A DNA stretch of 64,000 bases from an uncultured Armatimonadetes bacterium (lineage in GTDB: Bacteria; Armatimonadota; UBA5829; DTJY01), in NCBI GenBank assembly GCA_963717145.1, contig OY970325.1, positions 480,001 to 544,000 on the forward strand, written 5' to 3'. Positions within the stretch are counted from its first letter, which is position 1; each line of letters starts with the position of its first letter. Position numbers and translations under genes: made by a program. The notes under the pieces were generated by a model. The model worked only from the letters and a program-made list of their open reading frames with translations. It did not search any database and was not told the origin of the DNA. This document shows positions 1,193-45,136 of this stretch, one piece after another.

Positions 1193-1193
1193 C

Positions 1194-1856
1194 TTATGCC
1201 GCTATCGTCGCCGCCTCGGTCTCGCTCCAGTTGCCGATCTGACCCTCGCGGTTCACCCAGCGAAGCATGTAGTACACCGTCTTCCCCGCATCATCAGGAG
1301 CATACTCCAGGCTGAACGGGCTCTTGTACGCCACCGCCGCAAGCTCGCCATCGCCCGCGCCGGAGGGCAGTGTGCCGACCGTGCGCCAGATCTCGCAGCC
1401 GATCGCACCGACCGGCCTGCTTCGGCTCACCGTCGAGCCGTTCGTGTTCCGAATGCGGATCACGTGCTTCAGGCGGGCGTTCACATCGATCAGTCCGAGC
1501 GGCTTGTCCACACTCGCTCCCGCCGGCACCTGCGGCGCGGCAGTCTTGATCCCGAGCGCCTCGCGGTCGGCATCAGTCGTGTTCGGGCTGGCATTGATCT
1601 TCTTCACCAGCGCACGGATGACGGTGTCGAACGCCTTGCGCTCCTCATTCTTCGCCGAGCAGTAGCTCTGCGCCGTTGCCTGAGCGGTGTAGTGCTGCGC
1701 CAGGAGGGTGTCCCACTCCGGATGATGGTCCGCGAACGGCACCAGATCACCCACGACCAGTCCGAAGTGCGCGATGTTCGGCTCCAGATAAGCGATAAAC
1801 GTGTCGGCCCAGGCGGTGAAGTCAGCATCCTTGGCCGGCATATAATTGTTACTCAT
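1194..1856 (-). CDS. Uncharacterised 220-aa protein (helical N-half, beta-rich FN3-like C-half); paralog of 44337-45005
   Basis: Shares WADTFIAYLEPN, TTDADREALGIK, YMLRWVN and WSETE.ATIAA with the 44337 ORF; RBS present. Confidence 0.85.
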   Translation of the reverse strand: MSNNYMPAKDADFTAWADTFIAYLEPNIAHFGLVVGDLVPFADHHPEWDTLLAQHYTAQATAQSYCSAKNEERKAFDTVIRALVKKINASPNTTDADREALGIKTAAPQVPAGASVDKPLGLIDVNARLKHVIRIRNTNGSTVSRSRPVGAIGCEIWRTVGTLPSGAGDGELAAVAYKSPFSLEYAPDDAGKTVYYMLRWVNREGQIGNWSETEAATIAA

Positions 1857-1944
1857 TGTCTTTTGGTTCCTTCCATCAGAAATGATCCGGATTCAGCGGA
1901 AGGACACCGCGACGAACAGCCGGTGGATGGCCCAAGGTCCGGCA

Positions 1945-1996
1945 TGAACCATGAACCATTCCCCATGCCCCATGAACCATCATCCATCAACCATTC
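1945..1996. repeat. AACCAT(G/C) heptamer tract upstream of the 220-aa gene
   Basis: tgaacca tgaacca ... tgaacca tcatcca tcaacca. Confidence 0.65.
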
Positions 1997-2254
1997 CCCG
2001 CATCCCTTCCCGAATTCCGGTTGCAGCCGGTCGCGATAAGATCACCGCCCCGGCCACCATTCACAGCCCACGGCCGATCGTCAACCATGCACTGTTCACT
2101 GCTCACTGTTCACCTGTCCGCGATCACCCCTTCGTCAAGAGCCATATTTGATTACAACACCGATTATCGGAAAACGGATTCTTTGACTATAGGGCCAGAA
2201 CTAATCTTTTTTGCGCATGGCAGTAGGGGAATTTGGCCGTGGCGTTACTCAGTC

Positions 2255-2535
2255 AGGCGGGGGGGAATTTCGATTAGGCGACTGCTTTATTCAGTTTAGG
2301 CGGGGGGGAATTTCGATTAGGGCACTGCTTTATTCAGTTTAGGCGGGGGGGAATTTCGATTAGGGCACTGCTTTATTCAGTTTAGGCAGGGGGAATTTGG
2401 ATTAGGCCACTGCTTTATTCAGTTTAGGCGGGGGGGAATTTCGATTTGGCCACTGCTTTATTCAGTTTAGGCGGGGGGGAATTTCGATTTGGCCACTGCC
2501 TTATTCAGTTTAGGCAGGGGGGAATCTCGGTTTGG
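2255..2535. repeat. Tandem array, about 6.5 x 42-43 bp (underlying 21-nt period)
   Basis: Unit AGGCGGGGGGGAATTTCGATTAGGGCACTGCTTTATTCAGTTT starts at 2255, 2298, 2341, 2384, 2426, 2469 and 2512; no unique spacers. Confidence 0.95.
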
Positions 2536-2990
2536 GCACGGGGAAATATGAGCGTGGGCATCGGGAAATGGGCGTCCGGCGGGCGGAGAAAGACCACTCA
2601 GCGCCGGCCTGATCGAGCAGAGGTCGCGCCCCAGTCGAGCAACATCCCGGCCAAACCACAGCAGGGGTGGGGGATCATCGAACAAGGAAGCCCGACCCAT
2701 CGCCGTCCGCCTCGCCCCGACCAAACCCGCCGGCCTATGGAACTGAGGTCAGGAGCCGTGCAAGGCGAGGTGAATCCTATAGGGAAGACCCCGGCGGAAC
2801 CAAGAGGCGACTGTCCATCCTCCCTGTTACACTTGCATAGCCTGCAACTGGCAATAGGATTGGTCGCATGAAGGTTGTTGAGTCCCTTGCATCGAAAGGC
2901 TTTGCTATGGCATACTTGTGAGGATATGCCGTGAAGCTCGGACATGCGTTGATACTGCATGTCCTCGGTTCCGTGTTGTGCAGGTGCGAT

Positions 2991-5288
2991 ATGCCTAAGT
3001 TTACCGTAGACACACATCTTTTTCGAGAACTGGGCGAGCTTCTTGTCGGTCGTGATTCCACGGCTCTGGTTGAGCTCGTTAAGAACTCCTATGACGCCGA
3101 TGCCACCCATGTTCAGGTCTATGGCGAGAGTCTTGATACGCCCGAGAATGGCTTCATCATCATTCGCGATGATGGTGTTGGGATGAATTCCAGGCAGTTC
3201 GAGGAAGGATTCCTTCGTGTGGCGTCAAGGATCAAGAGCCATGGCGACCCAAGATCGCCTAGATTCGGGCGGCGATATACTGGCGCCAAAGGCATCGGCA
3301 GGCTGGCTGCTCATAAGCTCGCAAGATACATTGCCATAGAATCGTTTCCATGGACATCCACTGGCGACGATGCTGAACCCATCGATGCCAGAATTGACTG
3401 GGATATAGTTGAGGCGCACCAGAACTTGGACGAGCTGGAAGATTCAGATGCAATAACGCTGGCGCCCCGAGCCAGCGCCGAAGGCTCACAGCGCGGAACG
3501 ACGATCACTTTGTCCAGGCTTCGTCGTCGGTGGACATCTTCTGAGCGCTCACGATTCTTCACCGAGGTGACCAGTTTCACGCCACCTGAGCAACTTGTGA
3601 ACCTACCTGATGGTGTTACCGATGAGGATTTGCTCTTCCTTACACCACGGATATGTGACACCACCAGCAAGGATCCGGGTTTCACGGTTGAACTCCATGG
3701 TGAGCTACAGGCAGGTGAAGACTACTGGGTAGCCCTTGCCCAGACCGCAGACTGGCTCATCGAGATAGACGCTAGCCGCGATCATGATGGTGCTCCTGCA
3801 GGCGCATGCAAGGTACGATACAAGGTTACACCGACGAAGTTGACACGTAAAGACTTACGCAGTGCTCGGTCTCGTTTCTTTGAAATGGACCACCCTTCTG
3901 CTGACGACGGGCCATTCTTCCAAGCCCGAATCCTGATTCGCGAAGGTCATCTGGCGGAACAAGGACTCGACACCGGGTGGTTGACCAAATCCAATGGCGT
4001 TAGAGTCTTTATGGAAGGCTTCCGCGTACTACCGTACGGTGAGCCTGGCAATGACTGGTTGGAGATCGACCGAGGTTATTCACGACGGCAGAGGCAACTG
4101 GCATTCCTCAAGGATTTGCCTGTCGGGGTACCGATGGACGAGGATGAGGGACTGATGGCTCTGCGAAATGCCAACTATTTCGGGGCGGTGTTCCTCACTG
4201 AGGAAGACGCCCCTGGTCTTCAAATGCTGGTGAACCGCGAGGGCTTTATCCCCGAAGCCAGCTATGAGACATTGTGCACCCTGGTCCGCATCGGCATCGA
4301 TTTGTCGACGCGGGTAAGAGCCTACTTCGGTCGCGAGCATCGTGAGCTATGGAGATTGGAGCGAGAGATTCAGCCTGAGATCGAGGTCGAGCCCGTTCGT
4401 CGGCTGGAGCTTCGGGAGCAGATCGAGGCGTCGGTCAGAAGGGCAGCAGAGTTCGCGCAACAGGCTCGGATACAAGCAGCAGAAGGGGATTTTGGTTCAG
4501 CAATAGAGTATATCGACCAAGCCGCGGAGGAGTTCGCCTTGACGTCCGAGGCCTCCGAACGGCTGATGACCGAGCGGGCCCTGACGCAAGTTCTCGCTGC
4601 TGTTGGTCTGCAGATGGCGGCCTTCGTGCATGAGATCAATGCTCTGCTGGGAATGGCTAATACCTTGCAGGTTGCACTCGAAGCTATATCCAGGGACAGG
4701 GCGCTGCCTGCTTCTGCGAGGACTAGGATCGGACAGCTTGTGGGGTCGGTAGGGGACCTTCGACGGGCAATAGAGCGTCAGGCATCGTACCTAGTCGATG
4801 TTGTCTCCGCCGATGCTAGACGGCGACGGTCAAGGCAAAGAATGGCAGAGAGGTTTGACGCTAGTAGAAGACTCGTCCAAACTTCGGCGGACAGAAGGGG
4901 AATCGAGATTGTGAATGATATCCCGAGCGACTTCCGAACACCACCTATGTTCCCGGCTGAGGTCACCGTTATCTTTACCAACCTTCTGACCAATGCAGTC
5001 AAAGCCGCCGGTGATAACGGTCGAATCCATGCATCCGGCGTCAGAGATGGAGCCGTCCTGCGTATCCGGGTGGAGAACACTGGTGCGGCGGTACCCTCAT
5101 CGGAGGGCGAGAGGTGGTTCAGACCCCTTGAATCGACAACGACAGAGATAGATCCATTCTTGGGACAGGGAATGGGGATGGGTCTTCCGATCACCAGGAA
5201 TGTTCTGGCTGAATATGGGGCTACGGCCCGGTTTGTGGAACCGAGCCATGGCTATGCAACAGCAGTCGAACTCACCTTCAAGGAGTGA
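2991..5288 (+). CDS. GHKL (MORC/MutL-like) ATPase fused to C-terminal histidine kinase
   Basis: N-terminal ELVKNSYDADA, DDGVGM, GAKGIGR, GTTI; C-terminal H-box FVHEINA, N-box NLLTNAVKA, G2 box GQGMGMGL; start placed at MPKFTVD. Confidence 0.85.
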   Translation: MPKFTVDTHLFRELGELLVGRDSTALVELVKNSYDADATHVQVYGESLDTPENGFIIIRDDGVGMNSRQFEEGFLRVASRIKSHGDPRSPRFGRRYTGAKGIGRLAAHKLARYIAIESFPWTSTGDDAEPIDARIDWDIVEAHQNLDELEDSDAITLAPRASAEGSQRGTTITLSRLRRRWTSSERSRFFTEVTSFTPPEQLVNLPDGVTDEDLLFLTPRICDTTSKDPGFTVELHGELQAGEDYWVALAQTADWLIEIDASRDHDGAPAGACKVRYKVTPTKLTRKDLRSARSRFFEMDHPSADDGPFFQARILIREGHLAEQGLDTGWLTKSNGVRVFMEGFRVLPYGEPGNDWLEIDRGYSRRQRQLAFLKDLPVGVPMDEDEGLMALRNANYFGAVFLTEEDAPGLQMLVNREGFIPEASYETLCTLVRIGIDLSTRVRAYFGREHRELWRLEREIQPEIEVEPVRRLELREQIEASVRRAAEFAQQARIQAAEGDFGSAIEYIDQAAEEFALTSEASERLMTERALTQVLAAVGLQMAAFVHEINALLGMANTLQVALEAISRDRALPASARTRIGQLVGSVGDLRRAIERQASYLVDVVSADARRRRSRQRMAERFDASRRLVQTSADRRGIEIVNDIPSDFRTPPMFPAEVTVIFTNLLTNAVKAAGDNGRIHASGVRDGAVLRIRVENTGAAVPSSEGERWFRPLESTTTEIDPFLGQGMGMGLPITRNVLAEYGATARFVEPSHGYATAVELTFKE

Positions 5289-5294
5289 TCCCCA

Positions 5295-6437
5295 ATGCCA
5301 GCAACGAAGGTTCCGAGCATTCTCATCATTGATGACACCCTCTCGCAGGTGGAGGGGCTTGCTAATCTCATCAGAAGCGAGGGATTGGCGAAGGTGGTCA
5401 TATGTGATCCGGATGAGGTTAGCCGCCTTGACGTGTTGAGGGCTGACTTAGTGCTGATTGACTATGATATCGCAAAGTGGCGCAAGGGTATTGAGCCGGG
5501 TGAGATCATCAGTCAGCAGCCCGGGAATGGACTCGCGCTGGTTCCCGTCTTAAGAAGCCACATAAAGCGGAAGGTTCAGCCAACCGCCTACGCCATACTG
5601 ACCGGTAAGATGGACGAACTGGCCGATCCTCTCCCATCTGAGTATCGCAACCATGCGCTGGCCAGCATAAACAACCTGGAGTGGATCTTCGAGAAATCCT
5701 CCCCCGGAGACGAACCACGATTATACCAGCAGATCGCTGAACTGGCTGCTGCTGTCAGGAGGCTCCCGCGGGGATGGACGCCATATTCTGATCGAGGCTC
5801 TGCAGAGCAGTTGGCAGGATTACTGGGACTTAGCCTGGGTACCGACGAGTCTGACGAGCTCATGCAGGATGTTCTTCGCTGCCATCCTCCGCTCTATGAG
5901 CTGTCGGAATGGAGTCACGGTCTAACTATTCTGCGATGGTTGCTCCACAGGATCCTGCCTTATCCGTGTTTCCTACTGGATACCAACTACCTCGCTGCTC
6001 GCCTTAGACTGCAGCATGCCGGACTGGAGAGCGCACTTCAGGTCGGATGCCCGCTTCGAAAGGCTCTAGCCCCCTATGAATATGATGGCATCCTACCTAC
6101 GTTTCTGGGCGGTCGATGGTGGCGAATGGGGGTAGAGAGGTTTCTATGGAACAAAACTGGGGGTATGTCTTTCGACATAGCGAGTGTCCGCAGGTTGGTA
6201 AATGCCCTGGCAGGGGAGGAGCTTCCGCCCAGTACTCCAGATGATTTTCCTGTAGTCTGCATCGGCGCCAGATACGAGTCCATGAAGGAGTTCTGCTCAA
6301 TCGATGAAGCCGTGCGGATTCGCCCAGATGATTGGCCTGCGTACGCTGAGCAAGCATGGACGACTCTGGAGCTTGCGAACGAGGAAACGAAGCTGAAGGC
6401 CCTTGTCATCGAAGAAGATAGAGAGAGGCTTGGTTGA
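5295..6437 (+). CDS. Response-regulator receiver domain with long unknown C-terminal domain
   Basis: ILIIDD, VLIDYD, ILTG and FEK receiver signature; directly follows the kinase. Confidence 0.8.
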   Translation: MPATKVPSILIIDDTLSQVEGLANLIRSEGLAKVVICDPDEVSRLDVLRADLVLIDYDIAKWRKGIEPGEIISQQPGNGLALVPVLRSHIKRKVQPTAYAILTGKMDELADPLPSEYRNHALASINNLEWIFEKSSPGDEPRLYQQIAELAAAVRRLPRGWTPYSDRGSAEQLAGLLGLSLGTDESDELMQDVLRCHPPLYELSEWSHGLTILRWLLHRILPYPCFLLDTNYLAARLRLQHAGLESALQVGCPLRKALAPYEYDGILPTFLGGRWWRMGVERFLWNKTGGMSFDIASVRRLVNALAGEELPPSTPDDFPVVCIGARYESMKEFCSIDEAVRIRPDDWPAYAEQAWTTLELANEETKLKALVIEEDRERLG

Positions 6438-7213
6438 TGCTAGTGGAACAGCCTTCTCCTCTTCAACTCAAGTTCTCGTTTTCGGGGATCAAGGACGAGA
6501 TCCAGACCATGAGGGAACTGGCCTCCAGATTCATCACCCCGCAGTCTGCTAGTGTACTTCGGGAGTGGCAGCAGCAACTCGAGGGTATCCAGGCAAACCG
6601 ACCCCAGAAGCCACAGCATTGGTGCATAAGCCCAGAACACCCCATAGAGACGATTCCGAGCCAGGGCCAATACGAACGTGGCGCAAGAAAGGCTGCGACT
6701 GTGCGAGGGGTTCTTACCGCGAAATGGACAGTTCTGGTGTCTCCCGTACAAGGCAAGAAGTCGCTGAAGCCAGAGAGGTTCCTCGTAGTGGGCATAGCCT
6801 CGACCAAGATCCAGATATACCATTCCGACGGGCGAGAACTGGCGAGGTGGCGCTTTGAGATAGGACTGGGCCCCAAAGCTCCAGGATGTCGTTTCCATAC
6901 ACAGGTACTGGGCGAGAATAGTGATACTGTGTTCCCTAAGCTTCTGCCCGTGCCACGTCTGCCGTCCATATTGGTGACTCCAATGGAGAGCTTGGATTTC
7001 TTACTAGGGGAGTTGTTCCAAGACGACTGGCATTTCCGGAGCACATCGGAAGCTGCTCGTATGGCAGCATGGGGTAACAGCCATCGCGAGCGGGTAAGAA
7101 GACTGCTGAACTGGCATCTTGATGCTGTCTGTGGCAGTTCAGGTAGCGCTTGGACAGCCATTAAGAAACATACTTTGAACCAGGACGCGCTTGTGGAGGG
7201 ATCGAATAAGTGA
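6434..7213 (+). CDS. Uncharacterised protein in defence operon (possible DUF2290-like effector)
   Basis: 4-bp overlaps with both neighbours; RFE...FHTQ...PRLP...P.E.LDFLL pattern. Confidence 0.7.
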   Translation: MMLVEQPSPLQLKFSFSGIKDEIQTMRELASRFITPQSASVLREWQQQLEGIQANRPQKPQHWCISPEHPIETIPSQGQYERGARKAATVRGVLTAKWTVLVSPVQGKKSLKPERFLVVGIASTKIQIYHSDGRELARWRFEIGLGPKAPGCRFHTQVLGENSDTVFPKLLPVPRLPSILVTPMESLDFLLGELFQDDWHFRSTSEAARMAAWGNSHRERVRRLLNWHLDAVCGSSGSAWTAIKKHTLNQDALVEGSNK

Positions 7214-8799
7214 TCCTACCTACTCCACCTGAATCCTGTAAGGTCTACACACCTCCTGCACTGGCCGATGCCATAGTTCGTTCCCTAGGTGATGCTCCAG
7301 ACGCTAGATGGCTCGAGCCCAGCGCCGGAGGTGGTGTATTCGTGTCAGCGGTGTCCCAACTGGGAGTGGAGCGTAACCACATCTGTGCCATAGACATCGA
7401 CAAGTGCTGCGGTCCGCATGATGGTCTTGCCATCGTCTTTCGAGGGCAGGATTTCGTGAGATGGTCACTTGACACTACACAGCATTTCGACAGGATAGTC
7501 GGCAATCCCCCTTATATTCGCCTCTGTCGGCTCGAGGAGTCGCTGAAGAACGCGGCATTGCGTGTCACGGAGCCTGATGGCAGTCCTATGCATCTTGGCG
7601 TGAACTACTGGCATGTGTTTGTATGCGCGTGCCTTAAGATCCTCAATCCTGGCGGTTCTCTGGCATTGGTGCTTCCCGCGTCATGGGATTACGCTGACTA
7701 CTCTGCTCCTCTCAGGTGTACGTTGCCCAAGCTCTTCCGAAGCGTTGTAGTCCACAGAAGCTTGCGACCACTGTTCGGCACGGTTAGCGATGGATCAGTC
7801 GTCCTGATCGCCAAGGGATACAGAGAGCAGTCAGAACACTATGCTCGCCATGTGCATGCAGACTTGCCTGCTCTCATCAAGGCGCTTGAGGTGGGAGAAC
7901 ACGATCTGGTAAGTACTGGTTCGCAGACCGAGCAGGAAGATGCTGGTGAGGAGCTTGTCACCCTTGGCGACATCGCTGACATCGTGATCGGAGCCGTCAC
8001 GGGCGATGCGAAGTACTTTCTTCTGACGGAGCAACGGCGCTTGGAGCATAAGCTCCCGGAGAGTTGCTGCAAGCGGATTCTCACTCGTGCCCGCCAGCTT
8101 CGGGGCGGCGAGGTCTCCCTTGATGATTGGAGGCAGCTCAAGGACGGAGGACACCGAGTCTGGCTGTTTTCTCCACCGGACGATCTTCTGGCCAATGATG
8201 CGGTACATGCCTATCTTGAGTTGTCCACAGACAAGGAGGGACCCAACAAGGAAGCGTATTGGCTGCAGAAGCGTGATGAGTGGTATAGAGTTGAACTGCC
8301 ACTGGAGGCGCATGGATTCATGAGTGGGATGCGCAGTACCGGCCCCTGGATGTGTATGAACCGCTCACCCGAGCTTACAGCTTCCAACACGCTCTACATT
8401 GTCAGATTCCGAGAAGATATCACTGAGGGTGAGCGCTATGCCTGGGCCCTATCCATGCTTACGTCTCCAGTCGCCGCACAGTCGGCGCAATCCTGTCGGC
8501 TCTATGCCGATGGGTTGAGGAAGTTCGAGCCAAGCGACCTGAAGAGGCTGAGGTTGCCGAAGCCACTGCGCTCTGAGGGAGCTAGAGGGGCATATGTACA
8601 GGCGGTTTCCCATCTGCTGAGCGATGGGCCTGTTTGGGCACGAGAGATCGCGGATCAGTGGTTCGCCGTGCAAAGCCGCCTGAGTGATCTGGCTCTCTCT
8701 AGGGAAGCGCAGATGGACCGGGTTGCTGAATCAAAGGGCACCTACCAGACGAGACTGCACGAGGATGGCCCGGTCGTTGCGACGGATATTCGTTCCTAG
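7210..8799 (+). CDS. N6-adenine DNA methyltransferase (gamma class, Eco57I/TaqI-like)
   Basis: VYTP, LEPSAGGGVF (motif I), IVGNPPY (motif IV), TRD-like C-terminus. Confidence 0.9.
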   Translation: MILPTPPESCKVYTPPALADAIVRSLGDAPDARWLEPSAGGGVFVSAVSQLGVERNHICAIDIDKCCGPHDGLAIVFRGQDFVRWSLDTTQHFDRIVGNPPYIRLCRLEESLKNAALRVTEPDGSPMHLGVNYWHVFVCACLKILNPGGSLALVLPASWDYADYSAPLRCTLPKLFRSVVVHRSLRPLFGTVSDGSVVLIAKGYREQSEHYARHVHADLPALIKALEVGEHDLVSTGSQTEQEDAGEELVTLGDIADIVIGAVTGDAKYFLLTEQRRLEHKLPESCCKRILTRARQLRGGEVSLDDWRQLKDGGHRVWLFSPPDDLLANDAVHAYLELSTDKEGPNKEAYWLQKRDEWYRVELPLEAHGFMSGMRSTGPWMCMNRSPELTASNTLYIVRFREDITEGERYAWALSMLTSPVAAQSAQSCRLYADGLRKFEPSDLKRLRLPKPLRSEGARGAYVQAVSHLLSDGPVWAREIADQWFAVQSRLSDLALSREAQMDRVAESKGTYQTRLHEDGPVVATDIRS

Positions 8800-8965
8800 T
8801 CGGGTGTTCCGTAGCTTTCTTCCTTTCGCTCGCATTCCGCTCTCCGTGACTCCCCTCGCTCTTGTCTCCACTTGCCGATCCAGAGCCTGTCCCCGGATCG
8901 TGCGACTGGAAACCGGTCCAGCGATGTTGCGGCCGGGCGGGGTGGCGCGGTACCATGGGTGCGGT

Positions 8966-9173: not shown

Positions 9174-9316
9174 CGTGTTCTCCCGGACCGAGGGTGCGTA
9201 TACGGATGCGCGACACATGTGTTCATGCCCATTAGCTCGTTAGACTGCGGGAATCGTAACGGCGCATGGTATGTGCTACCATTGCCGGACGATGGCCAAA
9301 GAAATATTTGTTAGAT

Positions 9317-36373: not shown

Positions 36374-37982
36374 CAACACTCCCAACGCAGCTCGAACGTT
36401 AGATGCGCTCCGCAGCGTCGGCTATGATTTCAATGCCGCTGTCGCCGATCTTGTAGACAACAGTATTGCGGCGGGTGCTGTGAACGTATGGGTGTTCTTC
36501 TACAGGTCAGGCGACGACTTCAGATTGAGGATTGTTGACAACGGCCGGGGCATGACTGCGGATGCGGTAAAGGAAGCCATGCGTCTTGGCACAGAGACTA
36601 CCTATGAGCAAGGAAGCTTAGGCAAGTACGGGTTCGGCCTGAAGACTGCATCGATCAGCCAGTGTCGCAGACTCACAGTATTGTCGCGAGCCAAACGCGA
36701 CCAGGAGTATCATGGCTTCACACTGGATATAGACGAGGTGCATAAGTCCAACCAATGGGAGATCACCGAAACATCAGCCGGAGACATCGGCAAGTATGTT
36801 GAGACTCGAATGGTTCCGAGTGGCACCGGCACGTCGGTACTCTGGGAGAAGATCGATCGCCTTGCCGAGGAGTACAATTCATTCCAGCGAGAAGGTGCTG
36901 CAGATAACTGGGTTGGCCGAAAGCTTGATGAACTCAAACAACACCTAAGCATGGTCTTCCACCGCTTCCTCGACGGATCAGCGGAAAGACGCAAGCCACT
37001 TGTGATCAGCTTCAACGGAAACAAGCTTGTCCCCTGGGACCCCTTCTGCACTGCCGAGCCAAACACAAGACGGTTACACGAAAAAGCCTTCATTCCACGC
37101 GAGCATGGATGCAGTGCCCCGGTCCGCGTGAAACCGTACATACTGCCGGTTAGAGAAGGTCCCGGAGGCTTCTCTTCCAGACAAGCCTGGGAGTCGGCCG
37201 CTGGGCCGCTCAAGTGGAATGATTCTCAGGGATACTATGTATACCGTGAAGATCGCCTGATACATTTCGGGGGCTGGCTATGGACGAGGGCAAAGGACGA
37301 GCATGTCAAATGCGCGCGAGTGGCTTTGTTGTTTCGCTCGGAACACGATGACGCATTCGAGATCTCTGTGAACAAGGTGCAAGTGAAGCTTCCCGCGAGT
37401 CTTCGGGAGTTCCTTGTAAACGAGGTGAACCCGGAGGTCGTGAAGATCGCGAACGAAACGTACCGTGGAAGTGCCCGTGGAGGCGATACAGGCAACCGCC
37501 ACAAGCGCTCAAGCCAAGTTGTGAAGAGCACTGCTCCCACGGCTATGCAGGAAGACCGTGTGAGTGTCCAGCCTAATGGCGCGGGCCATATCGAGGTGCA
37601 CAATCCCAAGGGAAGATTCGTCCTGAACCCAGAACGAGATACCATCGATATGGGTCTCCAGCGTTTTGAGATAAGAACAGGCGTTGTTGAGGACGGCGCT
37701 GTCTGGAAACTGGTTGGCACCCCTGAATGCGGGTTTGCGGTGATTCTCAATAGCGACCACCCGTTCTACCAGCTTGCATACGAAAACGGCAAACCGACGG
37801 CAGCTCTTACCATATTGCAGGATGCGCTTCTCTGCGCTATGGCCTATGCCGAGCTTCGATGTGGGTCAACAGGTAATCTGAGCTTGTTCAATGAGATTCG
37901 ACATGCGGTGTCGCAATTCTTGGAAAAGTGGACTGCCGATGCTCTGCAGACGACGCCACTCTCGAGTAGGAAGTCATCATGA
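36360..37982 (+). CDS. MORC/MutL-like GHKL ATPase (MzaB-like)
   Basis: LRSVGYDFNAAVADLVDNSIAAGA, DNGRGM, LGKYGFGLKTAS, GT, QGYYVYR..RLI..GGW, EISVNK. Confidence 0.9.
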   Translation: MRKHDNTPNAARTLDALRSVGYDFNAAVADLVDNSIAAGAVNVWVFFYRSGDDFRLRIVDNGRGMTADAVKEAMRLGTETTYEQGSLGKYGFGLKTASISQCRRLTVLSRAKRDQEYHGFTLDIDEVHKSNQWEITETSAGDIGKYVETRMVPSGTGTSVLWEKIDRLAEEYNSFQREGAADNWVGRKLDELKQHLSMVFHRFLDGSAERRKPLVISFNGNKLVPWDPFCTAEPNTRRLHEKAFIPREHGCSAPVRVKPYILPVREGPGGFSSRQAWESAAGPLKWNDSQGYYVYREDRLIHFGGWLWTRAKDEHVKCARVALLFRSEHDDAFEISVNKVQVKLPASLREFLVNEVNPEVVKIANETYRGSARGGDTGNRHKRSSQVVKSTAPTAMQEDRVSVQPNGAGHIEVHNPKGRFVLNPERDTIDMGLQRFEIRTGVVEDGAVWKLVGTPECGFAVILNSDHPFYQLAYENGKPTAALTILQDALLCAMAYAELRCGSTGNLSLFNEIRHAVSQFLEKWTADALQTTPLSSRKSS

Positions 37983-40612
37983 TAAGCCGCACTGACATCG
38001 CTGTTCATGCCATACTTCTGCAGGTGCAGGGCGGGTCCGACCTTGGTGAGGCACTTGCGGCGTACACAAACCCCTTCGATCGTGAGCCACTTCTTCCCGA
38101 GGAAGCCGACGATGTCTTGGCTCGGGTAAGCCGTGAGATAAGGTTTCAGGGTGCTCGCGCTACAGCGGAAGTTGAGGATCCCATTGTCATTGCAGAGAGG
38201 CATTTGCCGTGGTATGAGGACTGGCTTCTGGAGAATCCAAACCCCGCTAATCGGTATTACTGGAACCGACTGGCCGAATTCGTGGGAAGAACCTTCCAAA
38301 GTCGTTATTCACCCGAGGAAGCAGGCGCAATCCTACGTTCCATTGATAACTCCTCCGACGCCATTCTTCATCAGATGGAATCCACAGAACGGGGCTACTT
38401 CTCCTCAAAGGGATTGGTGGTCGGATATGTTCAGAGCGGCAAGACAGCTAACTTCACGGCGGTGGTGGCCAAGGCATTAGACGCTGGCTATCGCCTGGTG
38501 GTTGTCTTGACCGGGATTCATGAGAACCTTCGTCGCCAGACACAGCAACGAATGGATTGCGAGTTGACCGGAGAACCCGACCACAGAGAGCTAGATCATG
38601 TACCCCTCCATAGCCCTAACAGGCGTTTCTCCAGGTTTACTACCAGGGACTGCGATTTTGCGTCCACAGGCCTGGGCCATCTAGACGTAGATGAGGGATA
38701 TCCCAATCCCATACTTCTTGTCATGAAGAAGAACCCCGCTCGGATGAGAAGCTTCATCCGCTGGGTGGAGCGAGCATCTGAGGAGACCCGTTTCCATCTC
38801 CCCCTCCTTCTCATCGATGATGAAGCGGACTTGGCGTCGATAGACACCCGCTACGGACGAGGTCAGGGACCAACAACTACGCCAACGCCCACCAATGAGA
38901 GCATTAGGCGGATCCTTGCTCTGTTTCCTCGCAATGTCTATGTCGGATACACCGCCACACCGTTCGCGAATGTGCTCATCGACATGAGCGTCGAACATGA
39001 CACATGTGGACGCGATCTGTACCCACGAAACTTCATCGTAGCCCTACCACGCCCAGAGGATTACTTCGGCGCGGAGAGGGTCTTCTCGCGAGGGCGTGAT
39101 AGCCATTACGTCAGGACCATCGCCACTGCCGAACTACCTCGGTTCGTCCCGACGACGACAACGCTCCATAGCATACCCCGTGATGTAACCGGATCGCTGT
39201 ATAATGCAGTATTGTCCTTCATCCTTGCCGGCGCGGCCAGGGCCGCAAGGCAGCAGGGCGCAAAGCCCATGACCATGCTCGTCCATACTACGCATCGGCA
39301 GGCAGGGCACAGTCGCATGCGTGAAGTCTTGGACCGCTACTGCAACTCGCTGAGAGCCTTGTGGGCTGATCAGTACGAAGGTCCTCGGCTTCGTCGTCAC
39401 TTTGCCTGCCTGTGGCATCAGGATTTCATGCGCACTACTCAGATGCTGGACGACGACTTTCCGGGACGGAGAATGGGCTTCTCTGCTATCGAGGGGCATA
39501 TTCCTACCTTTCTGGACCAGATTCATGTCCTGGAGCTGAACGCGAGCTCAGAGGATGAGCTAGATTACACCCAGTATCCAGACCGCAAGGTCATTGCCGT
39601 GGGGGGGAATCAGCTATCCAGAGGGCTGACACTGGAGGGCCTCGCTGTCAGCTTCTACTTGCGAAGGACCGGGGCGTACGATACGCTCTTGCAGATGGGG
39701 AGATGGTTTGGCTACAGAAGTGGCTACGAGGACCTAACTCGCGTGTATACGTCAGAGGTGCTCGCGAGCTGGTTTGAGGACTTGGCCCTTGTAGAACAGG
39801 AACTCCGAGATGACATTGGACGATATGAGGATGAAGGTCTCACTCCCGCAGAAGTCTCCGTCCGCATACGGGCGCATCGGACTCTTCGCGTAACGGCCCG
39901 AAACAAGATGGGTGCGGCGCAGGTCATAAGGGGTTCGTTTAGTGGCAGGTTAGCCCAGACTATCTGGTTCCAGTTGGATCAGCCTGCGGTGCTGAGGCAG
40001 AACTTGGCCACAGCAGGTAGCTTTGTTGATGAATTGCACCAAGCCTATCCCTGCCAGCAACGGGATGGAGCATACATCCTCCAAGGTATTCCACATGGTC
40101 CAGTCATGGACTTCTTGGAGGGCTACAGGTTTGACCCGAGAACACACGATGCGGGGCCCGGTCTCGACAGCGACGACATGCTTGAGTACATCAGGAGACA
40201 GATTGGCTCCGGGGAGCTGACCCAGTGGAATGTGGCTGTGGTTGGGCAGACGGAATCAAGGCCCCGCGAGAACACGCCCATTGAGCTGGGAGGCGTCAGC
40301 ATCATCCCGGTACGACGAACCCGGATGCAGAAGCATCGGTGGAAGATAGGTGTCCTGAGTGATCCCAATGATCTGACTCTGGATGAAGAGGGGGTACGAG
40401 GGAATCCCCACGAAGGACGACGACATCCGTTGTTGCTGCTCTACCCTGTCTGGCATGGTTCACAGCCCGACAGGCCTTCTGGCACCAGGGAGACTCTGTT
40501 CAAGGATATAGAGGAGCAAGTCGATCTTCTCGGTCTGGTCATCGTGTTTCCCAAGAGCCAATCTGAGCCTAATATTGTCATTTCGCAGCCTGATGGAAGG
40601 GATGCGGTCTAG
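37979..40612 (+). CDS. Z1-domain SF2-helicase-like endonuclease (MzaC-like)
   Basis: GLVVGYVQSGKT, LIDDEAD, YVGYTATPFAN, LSRGLTLEGL, DTLLQMGRWFGYR. Confidence 0.9.
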   Translation: MISRTDIAVHAILLQVQGGSDLGEALAAYTNPFDREPLLPEEADDVLARVSREIRFQGARATAEVEDPIVIAERHLPWYEDWLLENPNPANRYYWNRLAEFVGRTFQSRYSPEEAGAILRSIDNSSDAILHQMESTERGYFSSKGLVVGYVQSGKTANFTAVVAKALDAGYRLVVVLTGIHENLRRQTQQRMDCELTGEPDHRELDHVPLHSPNRRFSRFTTRDCDFASTGLGHLDVDEGYPNPILLVMKKNPARMRSFIRWVERASEETRFHLPLLLIDDEADLASIDTRYGRGQGPTTTPTPTNESIRRILALFPRNVYVGYTATPFANVLIDMSVEHDTCGRDLYPRNFIVALPRPEDYFGAERVFSRGRDSHYVRTIATAELPRFVPTTTTLHSIPRDVTGSLYNAVLSFILAGAARAARQQGAKPMTMLVHTTHRQAGHSRMREVLDRYCNSLRALWADQYEGPRLRRHFACLWHQDFMRTTQMLDDDFPGRRMGFSAIEGHIPTFLDQIHVLELNASSEDELDYTQYPDRKVIAVGGNQLSRGLTLEGLAVSFYLRRTGAYDTLLQMGRWFGYRSGYEDLTRVYTSEVLASWFEDLALVEQELRDDIGRYEDEGLTPAEVSVRIRAHRTLRVTARNKMGAAQVIRGSFSGRLAQTIWFQLDQPAVLRQNLATAGSFVDELHQAYPCQQRDGAYILQGIPHGPVMDFLEGYRFDPRTHDAGPGLDSDDMLEYIRRQIGSGELTQWNVAVVGQTESRPRENTPIELGGVSIIPVRRTRMQKHRWKIGVLSDPNDLTLDEEGVRGNPHEGRRHPLLLLYPVWHGSQPDRPSGTRETLFKDIEEQVDLLGLVIVFPKSQSEPNIVISQPDGRDAV

Positions 40613-41649
40613 TGGATATCGAGGCGGTAACTCAGGCAATATGGGCGAATCTGCGAGGAAAGGAGACCTCGGATCTTTCCATGGCCCCAGCGGAGCCGCT
40701 TACCTTTATGAGTAAGGAGAGCCCGTATGTTTGTGTCATGGTATCACGTGATGGGACACTGCACCTCCTGCTGTCACCAGATTCGCCACTGGCTGAAAAG
40801 CTGATAGACCCCGGAGTTGTCGGCATACGCGTTGGCCTGTTGCCTGACTGTCTTGTGGTGGGCAGGCCGAGGCAGACCTACATTGACGTACGCTGCGATT
40901 CCCAGCAGTTCTCCGGACCGTTCACGGTAGTGATCAGGCAGGTCGCTCTCGCCATCCTACGCGATGGAAAGCCGCCGAGTGTTGCTGTGAATTCGGTTCT
41001 CCGCCTCTGGCGACGGTTCTGGATCAGACAGCCCACGGGTGCTCTGTCGGAGGCCGAACAACTCGGTCTGCTGGCGGAGCTAATGATGCTGCAGGCTCTG
41101 ATCGAGGCTGGTGTTCAGAACGCCGTCTTGGCTTGGACTGGCCCACTGGGTGGCGAACATGATTTCGAATTGCCGGGCATAGCACTTGAGGTCAAATCGA
41201 CTCTAGGCAATCAGCGAAGGCACCTGATCAATGGTCTTCATCAGTTGGAGATGACTTCCGGACGCGCGCTCCTGGTAGTCTCCACCCTTGCCCTCCGTGG
41301 CGAAGGAGGAGTTGCGCTGTCAGGCACGGCAGCCCTTCTCTTGAACATGATTGACACTCCAGAAGAACAGGAAGGGTATCTGGATCGTCTCGCCGCCGCG
41401 GGGTACTCCCCGGCACATGATGATGAGTACGCGATTTCCCTCTTCATCATGGGAGAGCCGGTGGTGTTCCATGTTGATGAAGGATTTCCCAAGATCACAC
41501 CAGAATCGCTTACTAAGCCCATATCCCCCCGAATCGATGCCGTACGCTACAGCGTTGATCTCGATGGGTTGCCACATTTCGGGATGCAGTCACAGGACTT
41601 TGTGAAACTGCTACGCTCAGGAAGTGACGAGCAGCATTCAGGAGTCTGA
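40612..41649 (+). CDS. PD-(D/E)XK motif protein (DUF4420, MzaD-like)
   Basis: W..FW, QLGLLAEL, WTGP...HDF...ALEVKST, INGLHQL, FPKITP. Confidence 0.85.
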   Translation: MDIEAVTQAIWANLRGKETSDLSMAPAEPLTFMSKESPYVCVMVSRDGTLHLLLSPDSPLAEKLIDPGVVGIRVGLLPDCLVVGRPRQTYIDVRCDSQQFSGPFTVVIRQVALAILRDGKPPSVAVNSVLRLWRRFWIRQPTGALSEAEQLGLLAELMMLQALIEAGVQNAVLAWTGPLGGEHDFELPGIALEVKSTLGNQRRHLINGLHQLEMTSGRALLVVSTLALRGEGGVALSGTAALLLNMIDTPEEQEGYLDRLAAAGYSPAHDDEYAISLFIMGEPVVFHVDEGFPKITPESLTKPISPRIDAVRYSVDLDGLPHFGMQSQDFVKLLRSGSDEQHSGV

Positions 41650-41688
41650 TCCTGGGGTACGGGATCGCCGTATTGATGATTCGGAGGT

Positions 41689-43317
41689 ATGCTCTTGCAG
41701 ATACCAGTGATCGACCTGTTCGCAGGCCCCGGTGGGCTTGGCGAAGGATTCTCAGCATACCTCGCAGAGTCGGGTGAACACCCCTTCCGGATAGCTCTTT
41801 CCGTTGAAAAGGATCCCGATGCTCACCGCACTCTCATGCTGCGTAGCTTCTATCGCCAGTTCCGCGAACAGCCGGTGCCGGAGGACTACTACAGCTACCT
41901 GAGAGGCGATCTCGATCCAGTCCTACTGTCTGCCAGATGGCCGAACGAGTGGAAGGCTGCACAGAATGAGGCTCTTCACGCCGAACTGGGCACCGCCGAA
42001 GGCGATAAGGAAGTGGCAAAGAGAATCAGCGGACTGAAGTGCACGTTGCGCCATTCGCCCTGGGTACTCATAGGAGGCCCACCGTGCCAAGCCTATTCCA
42101 TGGTGGGGCGGAACAGACGTAAGGGCTTGAACCCTGAGGAGTTCGAAAAAGATCACCGTCATTTCCTCTATAGAGAGTATCTGAGGATCCTCGCCAAGCA
42201 TTCCCCTGCGGTTTTCGTCATGGAGAACGTTCCGGGGCTTCTATCTACAGTGATCGAGGGCAAGAATATCTTCCAGAAGATACTGGAGGACCTGCGAGTA
42301 CCCTCGAAGGCCGTGGCTGACCAGAACAATGCAGTCGAAAGAAGTCTCCTGCCCTACAGATATGAGATATATTCGCTGTCAGTGAAGAAGGAAAGCCCGG
42401 CCGATCTCAAACCGAGCGACTTCATAGTGAGGAGCGAGGACTATGGTGTTCCGCAGACCCGCCACCGATTGATTCTGATCGGAGTCAGAAGCGATGTGCA
42501 TATGCAACCGGCATTATTGGCAAGGCAATCGCCCCGGATTCCTGTCGAGCATGTCATACGTGACCTGCCGAAACTCCGAAGCTGCTTGTCCAAGGAACCC
42601 GATTCTGTATCTGCGTGGACGGGCGTACTCAAGGCAATACCAACCCAGGAGTGGTTTTCCAGCATCTCCGATCATCGGGTGCGCGAGCAGATGTTGAAGC
42701 GGGTCGGCGATATAGGACCTGATCTAACTCCAGGCGAGCAGTTTCTGCCGCATACAGGCGGTCCCCATGATCTGCGGGAATGGATCCATGATGATAGACT
42801 GATGGGGGTGTGCAATCATGTGTCCAAAGCGCACATGCGGGCCGATCTCTACCGTTACATGTTCGCGGCATGCTATGCCGAAGTTCACGGCGTGTCGCCT
42901 CGCATGAAGGATTTCCCTGAAGCACTCTGGCCGTTTCACACCAATGTCAAAGAGGCCGTGAGCGGCGACAAGTTCGATGACAGATTTCGGGTGCAAGTGG
43001 CGAAGGAGCCTTCGAAGACGATTACCTCACACATCGCCAAAGATGGACACTACAACATACACTATGATGCCGCCCAGTGTCGCAGCCTGACAGTGCGGGA
43101 GGCCGCAAGGCTACAGACATTCCCGGATAATTACCTTTTTGAAGGTAATAGAACTGCCCAGTACCGACAAGTGGGCAATGCTGTGCCTCCTTACCTGGCA
43201 CGGCAGGTTGCGGCTTTGGTCTATCCTCTGCTAGTGAATGCGCCCTTGGCAAGGTACAATGACAGACACATTGACCAGCGACAAGCGAAGCTGGAATATG
43301 TCCCGTATCAGATCTAA
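41689..43317 (+). CDS. dcm: DNA (cytosine-5)-methyltransferase
   Basis: IDLFAGPGGL, GGPPCQ, ENV, YGVPQTRHR, LTVREAARLQTFPD, QVGNAVPP. Confidence 0.95.
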   Translation: MLLQIPVIDLFAGPGGLGEGFSAYLAESGEHPFRIALSVEKDPDAHRTLMLRSFYRQFREQPVPEDYYSYLRGDLDPVLLSARWPNEWKAAQNEALHAELGTAEGDKEVAKRISGLKCTLRHSPWVLIGGPPCQAYSMVGRNRRKGLNPEEFEKDHRHFLYREYLRILAKHSPAVFVMENVPGLLSTVIEGKNIFQKILEDLRVPSKAVADQNNAVERSLLPYRYEIYSLSVKKESPADLKPSDFIVRSEDYGVPQTRHRLILIGVRSDVHMQPALLARQSPRIPVEHVIRDLPKLRSCLSKEPDSVSAWTGVLKAIPTQEWFSSISDHRVREQMLKRVGDIGPDLTPGEQFLPHTGGPHDLREWIHDDRLMGVCNHVSKAHMRADLYRYMFAACYAEVHGVSPRMKDFPEALWPFHTNVKEAVSGDKFDDRFRVQVAKEPSKTITSHIAKDGHYNIHYDAAQCRSLTVREAARLQTFPDNYLFEGNRTAQYRQVGNAVPPYLARQVAALVYPLLVNAPLARYNDRHIDQRQAKLEYVPYQI

Positions 43318-43708
43318 GAATACCGGTCCGGAGATGATTGTCCGCTCTGCACTTCACCGAATGGGCTACCGGTTTCGGCTGCATGTGCGCAAGCTCCCCG
43401 GAACACCCGACATCGTGCTGCCGAAGCGCAGGATAGCGATCTTCGTCCACGGCTGTTTTTGGCACAGGCATCCCGACTGTAAGTACGCATACACACCGAA
43501 GAGTCGCCCGGAGTTCTGGCTGGCCAAGTTTCGTGATAACGTGGCTCGCCACGATGTGGTTGCTCGCCAGCTTGCCGATCTGGGTTGGACGGTCTTGGTC
43601 ATCTGGGAGTGTGAGACGGTTGACCGGGAACAGTTCGCTGCCAGGCTTAAGCAAGCCATCGAGTCACTGTCCGCAGTCAGCACTTCAGCCCCGCCCAAAG
43701 CTGCCTGA
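43259..43708 (+). CDS. vsr: Very short patch repair endonuclease
   Basis: RSWNMSRIRSKNTGPE, LPGTPD, FVHGCFWH, FW..K...N..., GW.VLVIWEC. Confidence 0.95.
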   Translation: MTDTLTSDKRSWNMSRIRSKNTGPEMIVRSALHRMGYRFRLHVRKLPGTPDIVLPKRRIAIFVHGCFWHRHPDCKYAYTPKSRPEFWLAKFRDNVARHDVVARQLADLGWTVLVIWECETVDREQFAARLKQAIESLSAVSTSAPPKAA

Positions 43709-43858
43709 TCGGCGACTGCATCCATGCTTCCTCCCTCCTGCAGCGGGTCAAGTCGATCCCGCGACTTCCTAGACAGCGGGTTCCGCTTCTTCTACGCACG
43801 CTCCTGCCTCGTGGAACGGGGCTGCCTCATTCAGTATCCACCAGTTTGTAGTTCCTGT

Positions 43859-44058
43859 CCGGGTTGGGAGAAGTTGTTTCCGGGCGGGGAGAGATTGTTG
43901 CGGGGGATTAGGAAGATGTTGTCGGGGATTAGGAAGATGTTTCCGGGCGGGAAGACATTGTTGCGGGGGATTAGGAAGATGTTCGCGGGGATTGACAACT
44001 TCCTTCCGGGCTGGAAGATCTTTCCGCCGGGCGATTGGAGGTTCTCTCCGCCCGGAAT
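43859..44058. repeat. Degenerate tandem array, about 9 x 21 bp
   Basis: ccgggcggggagagattgttg / cgggggattaggaagatgttg units; reads as heptads (QHLPNPP QQSLPAR) on the minus strand. Confidence 0.85.
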
Positions 44059-44336
44059 ATTGATATTCGACGCGTAATCGAAAATCCAAAATCCAATATC
44101 TAGATATTCTGGTTCGGTGTGCCAATAATAGGATTGGCGGTCGGAGAGAGCAAATGGTTGATCGCTGATGGTTCATCGTTCATAGAGAGACCATCGGCTA
44201 TCCGCTGTCTCACCGATCGCGGCCCGCATGGAGCAGAAAGGTCGAAGATAACGACAATCCTGCTTCCCAATGGCGGAGATTCGTTTTACCCGGTCCGTAG
44301 GATCGGAATCTTTACCTAGGAAAGGGAACAAGAAAC

Positions 44337-45005
44337 ATGAGTACCAGTTATTTCCCGTCCAATGATTCTGCGTTCAGCAGTTGGGCGGACACTTTCATCG
44401 CCTATCTCGAGCCGAACGTTGCGAGGTTCGGGCTGGCCATCCCCGACCTCGTCCCGCTCGTCGACGTTCATCCCCTGTGGGACACTATCCTCGGCGAGCA
44501 CTTCACAGCTCAGGCGACCGCGAAGAGCATGACTTCGCAGAAGAATGTGACGCGCGATACCTTCGAGGAGGTGATCCGCTCGCTCGTCAACCGGATAAAC
44601 GCGTATCCCGGCACGACCGACGCCGATCGTGAGGCGCTGGGGATCAAAAGCGCTCAGCCGGTCCAGACGACGGGCATGGACACCATCCCAGACACGCCCA
44701 TCGCGCTGATCGATGTGGGTGGCCGCCTGAAGCACGTGCTCCGGGTGCAGAACTCGACCGGCCAGGGAGTGAGCAGGAGCAAGCCGGCCGGCGCTCTCGG
44801 ATGCGAGGTCTGGCGGAAGGTTGGCGACGCGCCTCAGCCGGGCGAGGAGTTGCAGTACGTCGGGCTGGTGACGCGGAATCCGTTCCCGATCGAGTACACC
44901 TCCGTCGATGGCGGGAAGCAGGTTCACTACATGCTCCGCTGGGTGAACTCCAAGGGTGTCTACAGCAGTTGGAGCGAGACGGAGTCCGCCACCATAGCTG
45001 CATAG
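44337..45005 (+). CDS. Uncharacterised 222-aa protein, paralog of 1194-1856
   Basis: Collinear with the 1194-1856 product, roughly half identical by eye. Confidence 0.85.
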   Translation: MSTSYFPSNDSAFSSWADTFIAYLEPNVARFGLAIPDLVPLVDVHPLWDTILGEHFTAQATAKSMTSQKNVTRDTFEEVIRSLVNRINAYPGTTDADREALGIKSAQPVQTTGMDTIPDTPIALIDVGGRLKHVLRVQNSTGQGVSRSKPAGALGCEVWRKVGDAPQPGEELQYVGLVTRNPFPIEYTSVDGGKQVHYMLRWVNSKGVYSSWSETESATIAA

Positions 45006-45136
45006 GGGGAATGGCTGATGGTTCATGGTTGATGGCTGATGCCGGAAACCGGGAACCACAGAGGACACAGAGAAGAGAAGTTCATATTGAGGAATAGCAA
45101 GACTCGGGCGGGGCGGATTGATTGCCTCGCCCTTTC

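Follow-up and report, generated by a model that had tools for sequence, protein, structure and literature searches.

A phased-array gene cassette at the borders of defense islands in an Armatimonadota genome

Introduction

Small regulatory genes such as those for the WYL-type regulators BrxR and CapW, for CapH/CapP, and for RptR lie beside, and often divergent from, unrelated defense systems, with which they share an intergenic control region. Defense islands themselves have been mined mainly for effector systems, and little is known about their control or the sites at which they accumulate. Here we analyze a 64,000-nt stretch of the genome of an uncultured Armatimonadota bacterium (the window; contig OY970325.1, positions 480,001 to 544,000), in which a sequence-only reading had picked out two paralogous genes for a protein of about 220 residues, each with a 21-nt-period tandem array upstream and a restriction-modification-like operon beyond it, and had proposed that gene and array form a module linked to defense islands. 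Across the whole genome, we find that each copy of this gene belongs to a self-contained cassette at a defense-island border, comprising a phased array, a promoter with a strong ribosome-binding site, the gene for a predicted dimer, a short-period tract, and a terminator.

Two further architectures and one recently described system invite comparison. Iterons of plasmid and lambdoid origins are tandem direct repeats of ~17–22 bp whose spacing is close to two helical turns; internal dyad symmetry is frequent, and each element has its own repeat sequence. In ribbon-helix-helix (RHH) systems, such as ParR-parC and the omega heptads, dimers bind contiguous phased repeats cooperatively upstream of promoters, and the repeats diverge fast, avoiding cross-talk. 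VIPR combines the RAMP protein Vipr with an RNA of YNNGG tandem repeats, which are 5 nt long and carry variable dinucleotides; the system is reported to be mostly phage-borne, with some types residing in defense islands (10.64898/2026.04.26.720920).

Results

A large unnamed family with 25 copies in one genome

A profile search of all open reading frames (ORFs) of at least 100 codons in the 5.37-Mb single-contig genome returned exactly 25 intact copies of the gene, including both window genes, and nothing else below an E-value of 0.09. The paralogs are monocistronic genes dispersed over the chromosome; differences at the C terminus divide them into two subfamilies, one of 15 members and one of 10. 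Their composition is that of resident genes, with a GC content of 0.630 and a third-codon-position GC of 0.808, compared with 0.608 and 0.774 for all called genes; gene calls were taken from a rough codon-usage caller, which misses some low-GC genes and may overextend starts. Clustering of the neighboring genes revealed no recurrent neighbor family, which led us to drop the idea of a constant partner gene.

By sequence, the protein matched no characterized family, in line with its listing as unknown in the sequence-only reading. No match was found in Pfam for the two window proteins (best E-value, 0.076), in PHROGs or NCBIfam for four paralogs, or among PADLOC models for 24 paralogs; the family profile retrieved nothing from the PDB sequences below an E-value of 0.38, and a protein atlas returned only "hypothetical protein" clusters. 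A literature search for the family and for bacterial 21-bp arrays of this kind found nothing. The family is unnamed in every library searched. It is also large: among 1.84 billion representative sequences, the profile matched 6,925 proteins at an E-value of ≤1e-3, 3,868 at 1e-10, and 662 at 1e-30, and nearly all of the 150 matches listed are about 220 residues long. Members occur in at least six phyla, with a patchy distribution in the window's own class, where 5 of 10 genomes of the same taxonomic family and 0 of 30 from other families carry the gene; copies in those five genomes number 13, 5, 2, and 2, plus one match limited to the last 43 profile positions.

A phased array precedes the gene across phyla

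Tandem Repeats Finder (TRF), run over the whole genome, reported 1,563 rows. Within 700 nt upstream of the start codon, 24 of the 25 paralogs have an array, which starts 33–621 nt before the start codon and has a period of 21, 22, 24, 42, 43, or 44 nt, with a single case of 85 nt. Such arrays are strongly concentrated at the family. These upstream regions amount to 17.5 kb of the 5.37-Mb genome and would be expected to hold about 0.5 of the 151 arrays of the 21-nt class, yet 26 fall within them; similarly, 23 of the 78 such arrays outside gene calls front a paralog, where about 1.5 would be expected.

An alignment-free lag test, in which a locus counts if its best lag belongs to the 21-nt class at an identity of at least 0.65, yields a one-sided distribution, with array signals upstream of 23/25 and downstream of 0/25 paralogs in the window genome, at 17/19 versus 1/19 loci in four sister genera, and at 36/79 versus 1/77 loci in other phyla. 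By TRF, arrays are present at 16 of the 19 sister-genus loci and, in other phyla, at 45/79 loci upstream versus 7/75 downstream. The loci from other phyla represent the best 80 of 355 relatives, from records titled Acidobacteria/Pyrinomonadaceae/Blastocatellia, Phycisphaerae, Pirellulales, cyanobacterium, Chthonomonadales, Ignavibacteria, Verrucomicrobiia, BRC1, and alphaproteobacterium; as several of them share a genome or stem from closely related ones, the loci do not count as independent. The linkage of gene and array extends across phyla, and the proposal that the gene and its phased upstream array form a conserved unit is borne out.

The only paralog without an array is paralog 4 (genome 3015059-3015733; L137:9560-10234). 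An ORF stops 3 nt before its start, and two further small unknown ORFs are co-directional, so this copy may sit in an operon.

The cassettes are linked to defense islands

Four marker families were chosen from the window alone (HATPase_c_3, C5 methylase, N6_Mtase, and ResIII). With the window's own loci excluded, 27 marker loci remain, nine of which are no more than 10 kb from one of the 23 nonwindow paralogs, against an expectation of 2.3 (circular-shift P = 6e-4), and none of 5000 random-gene draws reached nine. As an independent test, the flanking DNA was compared in composition: the 6 kb upstream of the paralogs has a mean GC content of 0.586, compared with 0.605 at 400 control genes (p = 3e-5, or p = 2.4e-4 without the two window copies), whereas the 6 kb downstream is no different from controls (p = 0.45). 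Enrichment at homologs, which had been put forward as the test of the module, is seen for both arrays and defense genes, in each case on the upstream side.

Pfam and PADLOC annotation of ±9.6 kb around the 23 other paralogs, with the window copies read from the window genes, places defense-type genes within ~3 kb of 19 of the 25 paralogs, on the array side in 16 of these 19; this tally rests on the marker and GC tests above. The neighbors are diverse. Paralog 1 adjoins a GHKL/kinase ATPase operon with an Eco57I-type methylase, paralog 2 a Mza-like operon, paralog 3 a type I restriction-modification system and Septu, paralog 5 a methylase-nuclease fusion with HEPN, and paralog 6 PDC-S06 and Mrr. 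TIR-STAND proteins flank paralogs 7 and 10; STAND NTPases are found beside paralogs 8 and 20, the latter also having PDC-M36; and type III restriction-modification systems lie beside paralogs 9 and 13. A type IIG-like methylase (paralog 14), an HD-CE-TPR protein (paralog 18), PDC-M28C (paralog 21), HepT/MNT (paralog 23), and a KAP NTPase (paralog 24) complete the clearer cases, with weaker defense calls at paralogs 12, 16, and 17. The neighborhood of paralog 19 is ambiguous, and at paralogs 4, 11, 15, 22, and 25, Pfam and PADLOC recognized no defense neighbor.

In other phyla, among 50 loci with at least 2.4 kb on both sides, some of which are close relatives of each other, defense-type Pfam domains are found upstream at 15 loci and downstream at 3. 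Those upstream comprise NACHT, STAND, HEPN, EcoRII with Dcm, AAA_15/21, Eco57I/MmeI, TIR, a Pycsar effector, N6_N4 methylases, Dcm with Vsr, and HsdR; one extra upstream match, Uma2, is ambiguous. The defense operon is usually either divergent from the family gene or terminates at the array. The linkage of the gene-array unit to defense islands, as had been proposed, is observed in the window genome and elsewhere.

A resident cassette beside variable islands

Comparison with another genus allowed us to follow two loci. At paralog 5, the ortholog still lies between the same core genes (ValRS and a solute-binding protein to one side; GH57, PHP, MiaB, and MutS to the other) and lacks a 3.3-kb HEPN and methylase-nuclease insert. 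This insert, the only one resolved by synteny, lies on the 3′ side of the gene, outside the array. At paralog 20, the window genome has an extra ~10 kb relative to the other genus. The cassette itself is resident, and the neighboring defense islands are gained and lost.

Searches of 50,697 phage and 72,556 plasmid records returned no family member, and 2.9 million viral contigs yielded five family loci. Integrases and transposases are not a consistent feature of the paralog neighborhoods. One viral contig (L171:2995-6045) carries a family member with 40% identity that precedes a tail tape-measure gene by 400 nt and points away from a DNA methyltransferase gene; this contig is the only sign of a phage-borne copy. 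Some members lie beside tail-collar or S74 proteins.

The protein is predicted to form a symmetric dimer

The AlphaFold model of the protein [predicted local distance difference test (pLDDT), 91.3; predicted template-modeling score, 0.50] consists of helices at residues 10-27, 35-89, and 95-101, followed by a beta domain. The latter (residues 112-220) is modeled as a seven-strand beta-sandwich of fibronectin type III (FN3) topology, which aligns with chain 4yfe_B at a VIA-align Z score of 11.6 and a root mean square deviation of 2.5 over 97 residues; the best Foldseek match is likewise an fn3 domain (E = 2.7e-4). The Pfam fn3 model (PF00041) did not match either window protein at E ≤ 1. The N-terminal domain, modeled alone with a pLDDT of 94.6, gave only noise-level helical matches in fold searches (best Z, 6.2), with none from Foldseek at E ≤ 1e-3.

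When two copies were modeled together, they formed a symmetric homodimer with antiparallel long helices and an interface spanning residues 4-105. The dimer score was 0.72 (0.71–0.72 in three runs), compared with 0.00 for the best control, with contact agreement of at least 85% between runs and a partner pLDDT of at least 83; in calibration of the tool, the mark was reached by 20 of 30 solved pairs and by 1 of 23 single chains. We take the protein to be a small cytoplasmic homodimer, modeled with an FN3 domain at each end. Residues K69, R73, R81, R98, K147, R199, D10, and D37 are invariant in the family.

The free C terminus is nearly fixed as ATI[A/T/G/S]A (window 1194-1208 and 44991-45005), and 52 of 121 sequences end in AA. 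In sequence, this tail resembles a protease-recognition tail.

Arrays are locus-specific, conserved between congeners, and replaced between genera

Within an array, units are contiguous and near-identical, and in many arrays two related 21-nt subunits alternate. Between paralogs, the array sequences differ: the 24 arrays represent 23 unit types, and 16 of them have no other match in the genome. They are richer in GC than their surroundings (0.597 versus 0.540). Dyad symmetry is enriched, with a mean perfect inverted arm of 4.41 compared with 3.56 in shuffled units; 14 of 83 units are significant at p ≤ 0.05 and 33 of 83 at p ≤ 0.2, and many units could form hairpins of 5–7 bp. A-tract curvature was considered and rejected: A/T runs are not in excess (2.98 versus 3.10 in shuffled units), so classical intrinsic bending is unsupported. 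We also discarded the idea that the arrays code for a heptad-repeat peptide, because units with a period of 22 or 43 nt do not stay in frame. An Rfam search over the window gave nothing at the gathering score and one chance-level row within 1000-3000.

The arrays of two species of one genus are nearly identical. At greater distance, nine loci from Planctomycetota and one Blastocatellia genome share a CTCCNNGGAG core that repeats at a spacing of exactly 21 nt. Together with three further two-copy loci, 9 of the 12 loci bearing this label group within a single clade, well supported and of 17 rows, in a quick protein tree; since kin share the label, this clustering shows at least co-inheritance. 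Conservation in congeners, the recurrent CTCCNNGGAG core, and the enrichment of dyads together indicate sequence-level constraint on the arrays. In the Blastocatellia contig (L112, upstream of 2501), an array with this core has dnaA on one side and the family gene on the other.

The paralog 5 ortholog pair shows what is retained as arrays change. Downstream of the array, both genomes keep a −10-like box and the ribosome-binding site. An attempt to delimit a specificity region in the protein from this pair was abandoned, as the differences are scattered.

Solitary arrays with the units of paralogs 2, 9, 13, and 24 occur elsewhere in the genome. They were considered as remains of lost family genes, an explanation that we rejected, as there is no gene remnant beside them below an E-value of 0.07; we count them in favor of action in trans. 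Two solitary arrays lie at islands, one beside a type I restriction-modification system and Mrr, where it sits exactly between the island and the kdp operon, and one beside SIR2 and Hsp90-like ATPases. At genome positions 546373-546997, 2.4 kb past the window end, two further solitary arrays stand side by side with no family gene nearby, one with a 22-nt unit of the paralog 9 type and one with a 43-nt unit (×12) of the paralog 13 type.

A separate class of tandem hairpin units of 40–44 nt with a GCCCCTACGG-type core is dispersed over many intergenic sites, including genome 242440-242716, 4525418-4525616, and 720513-720645. By its sequence, this class is probably of the repetitive extragenic palindrome/bacterial interspersed mosaic element (REP/BIME) kind.

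The two window loci

Both window genes are real ORFs, paralog 1 at 1194-1856 on the minus strand (220 residues) and paralog 2 at 44337-45005 on the plus strand (222 residues), and every element that the sequence-only reading had described around them was found in place. The two proteins share 125 of 222 residues (56%; E = 2e-96) and are the closest pair in the family; the similarity noted between their 5′ leaders is real (42 of 75 positions identical) but unremarkable for such a pair. The suggestion that they bracket a meaningful interval of 42 kb did not survive, because the interval holds ordinary genes and the 25 paralogs are scattered over the chromosome; the bracketing is incidental, and nothing supports treating the two copies as a meaningful pair. 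Between the low-GC stretches, the 26 kb from 10 to 36 kb of the window carries glycosidase, amidase, and ABC transport genes at 61–63% GC.

Array 1 (2255-2529) consists of 6.4 copies of a 43-nt unit with 94% matches by TRF, each unit having two 21/22-nt halves, and lies upstream of both paralog 1, by 399 nt, and the divergent operon, by ~400 nt. The 21-nt period originally ascribed to both arrays is weak here (53% matches), the true period being 43 nt, whereas array 2 has periods of both 21 and 63 nt. Between array 1 and the gene is a heptamer tract (1943-1994, ×7.4 by TRF), followed by the leader (1857-1905, minus strand) with a purine-rich ribosome-binding stretch, GGAAGGAAC, before the ATG. 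The gene itself encodes the helical N-domain (residues 10-101) and the FN3-fold C-domain (residues 112-220). An ATGGTTG-type 7-nt short-period tract at 1097-1190 (minus strand), identified by TRF and from the sequence, begins 4 nt past the stop codon, and a terminator-like hairpin of the intrinsic type at 1024-1053 (minus strand), with a 13-pair stem and then a T-run, closes the 3′ region.

The divergent operon (2931-8799, plus strand) has a low GC content (0.546-0.584 across windows 2001-10000) and encodes a GHKL/histidine-kinase ATPase, a receiver-like protein, an unknown 259-residue protein, and an Eco57I-type methyltransferase. The ATPase that opens it is 785 residues long, with an N-terminal HATPase_c_3 and a C-terminal histidine-kinase-type HATPase_c domain, and the methylase is Eco57I/mad2-like. 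Judged by these domains, the operon is probably an unusual restriction-modification-like operon with two-component features.

Array 2 (43858-44018), of 21-nt units with a 63-nt super-period and 68–91% matches by TRF, lies 319 nt upstream of paralog 2, and its unit type recurs at genome 4716188-4716387, beside the SIR2 and Hsp90-like ATPase genes. That the two window arrays lie on opposite strands relative to their genes has no meaning, since their sequences are unrelated. The defense operon before array 2 (36360-43708, plus strand; GC, 0.54-0.56) is Mza-like, with MzaB, MzaC (Z1), and MzaD (DUF4420) followed by a C5 cytosine methylase and Vsr. PADLOC identifies its 36360-41649 part as the candidate system Gao_Mza (E-values of 2.6e-59 for MzaB, 1.2e-106 for MzaC, and 9.7e-16 for MzaD), and Vsr was identified by Pfam. 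The restriction-modification-like operons led by a GHKL ATPase that had been reported beyond each array are both real.

Past paralog 2, a heptamer tract (45011-45041, plus strand, ×4.4 by TRF) begins 6 nt after the stop codon. TRF also lists heptamer tracts at 1159-1189 (×4.4) and 1117-1139, and so reports all those originally described except the one at 44154-44183, which is visible by eye and goes unreported at a TRF score of 30. Both downstream tracts continue into GCCGGA..CGGGAA, as had been noted. Farther downstream, at 45135-45250, is a near-perfect palindrome of ~100 nt, related copies of which occur at ~37 genome loci, one of them downstream of paralog 3; in sequence it looks like a miniature inverted-repeat transposable element or a dispersed hairpin element.

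Short-period tracts are a general feature of this genome, which has 257 heptamer and 188 octamer tandem tracts. One begins within 40 nt past the stop codon of 229 of the 3870 called genes and follows 14 of the 25 paralogs; many have GGA every 7 nt. In the window, TCAACCA ×8 follows an ABC ATPase gene (21125-21856, minus strand), and tracts are present at 21078-21132, 28974-28996, and 54593-54628. From their sequence and position, they could be a 3′ untranslated region element or a protein-binding site.

Discussion

Our data place the cassettes where core genes meet variable, low-GC DNA carrying anti-phage systems, with the array usually facing the defense genes. An array unit of 21 nt, or a multiple thereof, corresponds to about two turns of DNA and would be helically phased. 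We propose that the array may act as an operator with multiple sites, bound cooperatively along one helical face by a protein of two-fold symmetry, for which the most economical candidate would be the cassette's own dimer, the only constant one. Each of the 25 cassettes would then be a private autoregulated circuit, which could also act on the divergent defense operon or on solitary arrays with the same unit elsewhere. To this reading, in which the predicted dimer reads its own array in a regulatory or sensing role, we assign a probability of about 0.4. We hold it at this level because the protein is acidic and without a known DNA-binding fold and because the arrays turn over faster than the protein.

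Several observations weigh against the operator reading or the linkages on which it builds. The family has a median isoelectric point of 5.7 and a median net charge of −3, with an isoelectric point above 8 in 9% of members. Neither domain matched a known DNA-binding fold in structure searches, the C-domain being a generic FN3 domain, and three of the invariant basic residues, K69, R73, and R81, fall inside the modeled dimer interface and may therefore be structural. Most array units have no dyad symmetry. The arrays of paralog 5 and its ortholog in another genus are completely unrelated at 70% protein identity, which is unusual for a regulator and its operator. A handful of similar 21-nt arrays front unrelated genes, and 34 of the 79 loci in other phyla have no array detectable by TRF, although arrays that are short or degenerate escape both TRF and the lag test. 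As for the defense linkage, two of the nine marker loci near paralogs are the housekeeping genes MutL and PriA, and the tally of 19 paralogs lacks matched control annotation and includes 3 cases resting on weak hits.

Some of these points are what one would expect if the array were read by another factor, either a host regulator or a phage-borne DNA-binding protein, with the FN3 dimer as the output, that is, a defense effector, a decoy, or a sensor that binds a phage protein rather than DNA via variable FN3 loops. FN3 domains are typical protein-binding modules, and the acidity of the protein and its lack of a DNA-binding fold, the wholesale replacement of arrays between genera, as expected if they track a fast-evolving outside partner, and the expansion to 25 diverged paralogs beside immune genes all fit such a role. 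On the other hand, neighbor clustering found no other gene consistently linked to the arrays, some 25 separate host regulators would be needed, and the protein has no recognizable effector domain; we consider this explanation unlikely, though to be taken seriously. The arrays could instead be architectural or recombinational border elements (an insulator, a domain boundary, or an exchange hot spot), with the gene as a conserved anchor for island insertion. Strict periodicity combined with free sequence, a resident cassette next to foreign, variable DNA, and the solitary array placed precisely between the Mrr-containing island and kdp would agree with this. However, the lack of excess A/T tracts, the lack of any consistently present integrase or transposase, the position of the one synteny-resolved insert 3′ of the gene and not in the array, and a core motif kept across phyla, which argues for sequence reading, together render it improbable.

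That the arrays are transcribed and act as RNA, with tandem short hairpins serving as guide, sponge, or stabilizer for the protein in a loosely VIPR-like manner, appears less probable still. Many units could fold into short hairpins, and a tandem-repeat RNA paired with a small protein has a reported precedent in phage conflict (10.64898/2026.04.26.720920), but the near-identical units carry no variable code, the period is 21 and not 5, the protein has no RAMP or RRM fold, Rfam gave no match, and the conserved −10-like box of the paralog 5 pair is downstream of the array. We give least credence to the view that this is an ordinary variable-region gene, perhaps of phage-tail origin, whose arrays reflect neutral slippage in long intergenic regions. 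The abundance of tandem repeats in the genome, the tape-measure neighbor in the viral contig, and the members beside tail-collar or S74 proteins are in keeping with it; slippage does not explain an exact period of 21, 42, or 63 nt found in several phyla and upstream only, nor the conservation of arrays between congeners, and the near-absence of the family from phage, plasmid, and viral collections speaks against such an origin. This explanation is already disfavored.

Returning to the operator reading, a more specific version is conceivable, albeit improbable: a new class of DNA readers with an FN3 fold and two-fold symmetry, each matched to its own rapidly evolving 21-bp array, might constitute an infection-responsive switch for defense islands. 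The arrays could mimic iterons or operators of invading phages, such that a phage DNA-binding protein, or displacement of the resident dimer, would turn on the cassette and the flanking immune operon.

Overall, the interpretation offered by the sequence-only reading is partly supported. The cassettes may attract island insertions, as it suggested, or may just be part of the islands. The cassette suggests an undescribed control or sensing module, in which a large unnamed family is combined with a strictly phased cis-element and a preferred place at the edge of immune clusters. If the dimer does read its own array, this would be a new DNA-recognition architecture and a set of mutually insulated regulator-operator pairs, with 24 arrays of 23 unit types in one cell; should phage factors read the array instead, it would represent a new sensing principle. 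Either way, the cassette provides a practical landmark for new defense genes in poorly studied phyla, and several of its neighbors here are unannotated.

The cassette lacks defining features of every known system that we considered. Like BrxR and CapW, the family gene stands beside diverse defense systems, both in the window genome and upstream in other phyla; unlike them, it has no winged helix-turn-helix, WYL, or helix-turn-helix domain, by Pfam for the two window proteins and by PADLOC for 24 paralogs. Its predicted fold is a helical hairpin joined to FN3, its cis element is a phased array of 3–12 units and not a single inverted repeat, and it is present in 25 copies in one genome. In contrast to RHH proteins, the model has no N-terminal strand (residues 1-9 are coil, followed by the helices at 10-27 and 35-89), and, unlike in ParR-parC, no partition ATPase was found among the neighbors of the 25 paralogs. 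CRISPR arrays differ in having unique spacers, whereas the units here are contiguous, and REP/BIME elements in being one dispersed unit, whereas 16 of the 24 arrays are unique in the genome. With VIPR, the cassette shares a small protein next to a tandem-repeat tract at phage-conflict loci, with the difference that its units are 21 nt long and near-identical and its protein is FN3 and not RAMP (10.64898/2026.04.26.720920).

Unlike in iteron replicons, no Rep/O-type initiator accompanies the arrays: the linked gene has no Rep match, and no neighbor family recurs. The arrays are chromosomal at 25 or more sites, with the family absent from the plasmid and phage collections searched. The arrays do resemble iterons in form, as direct repeats at 21, 22, 42, or 43 nt with a spacing of about two helical turns.

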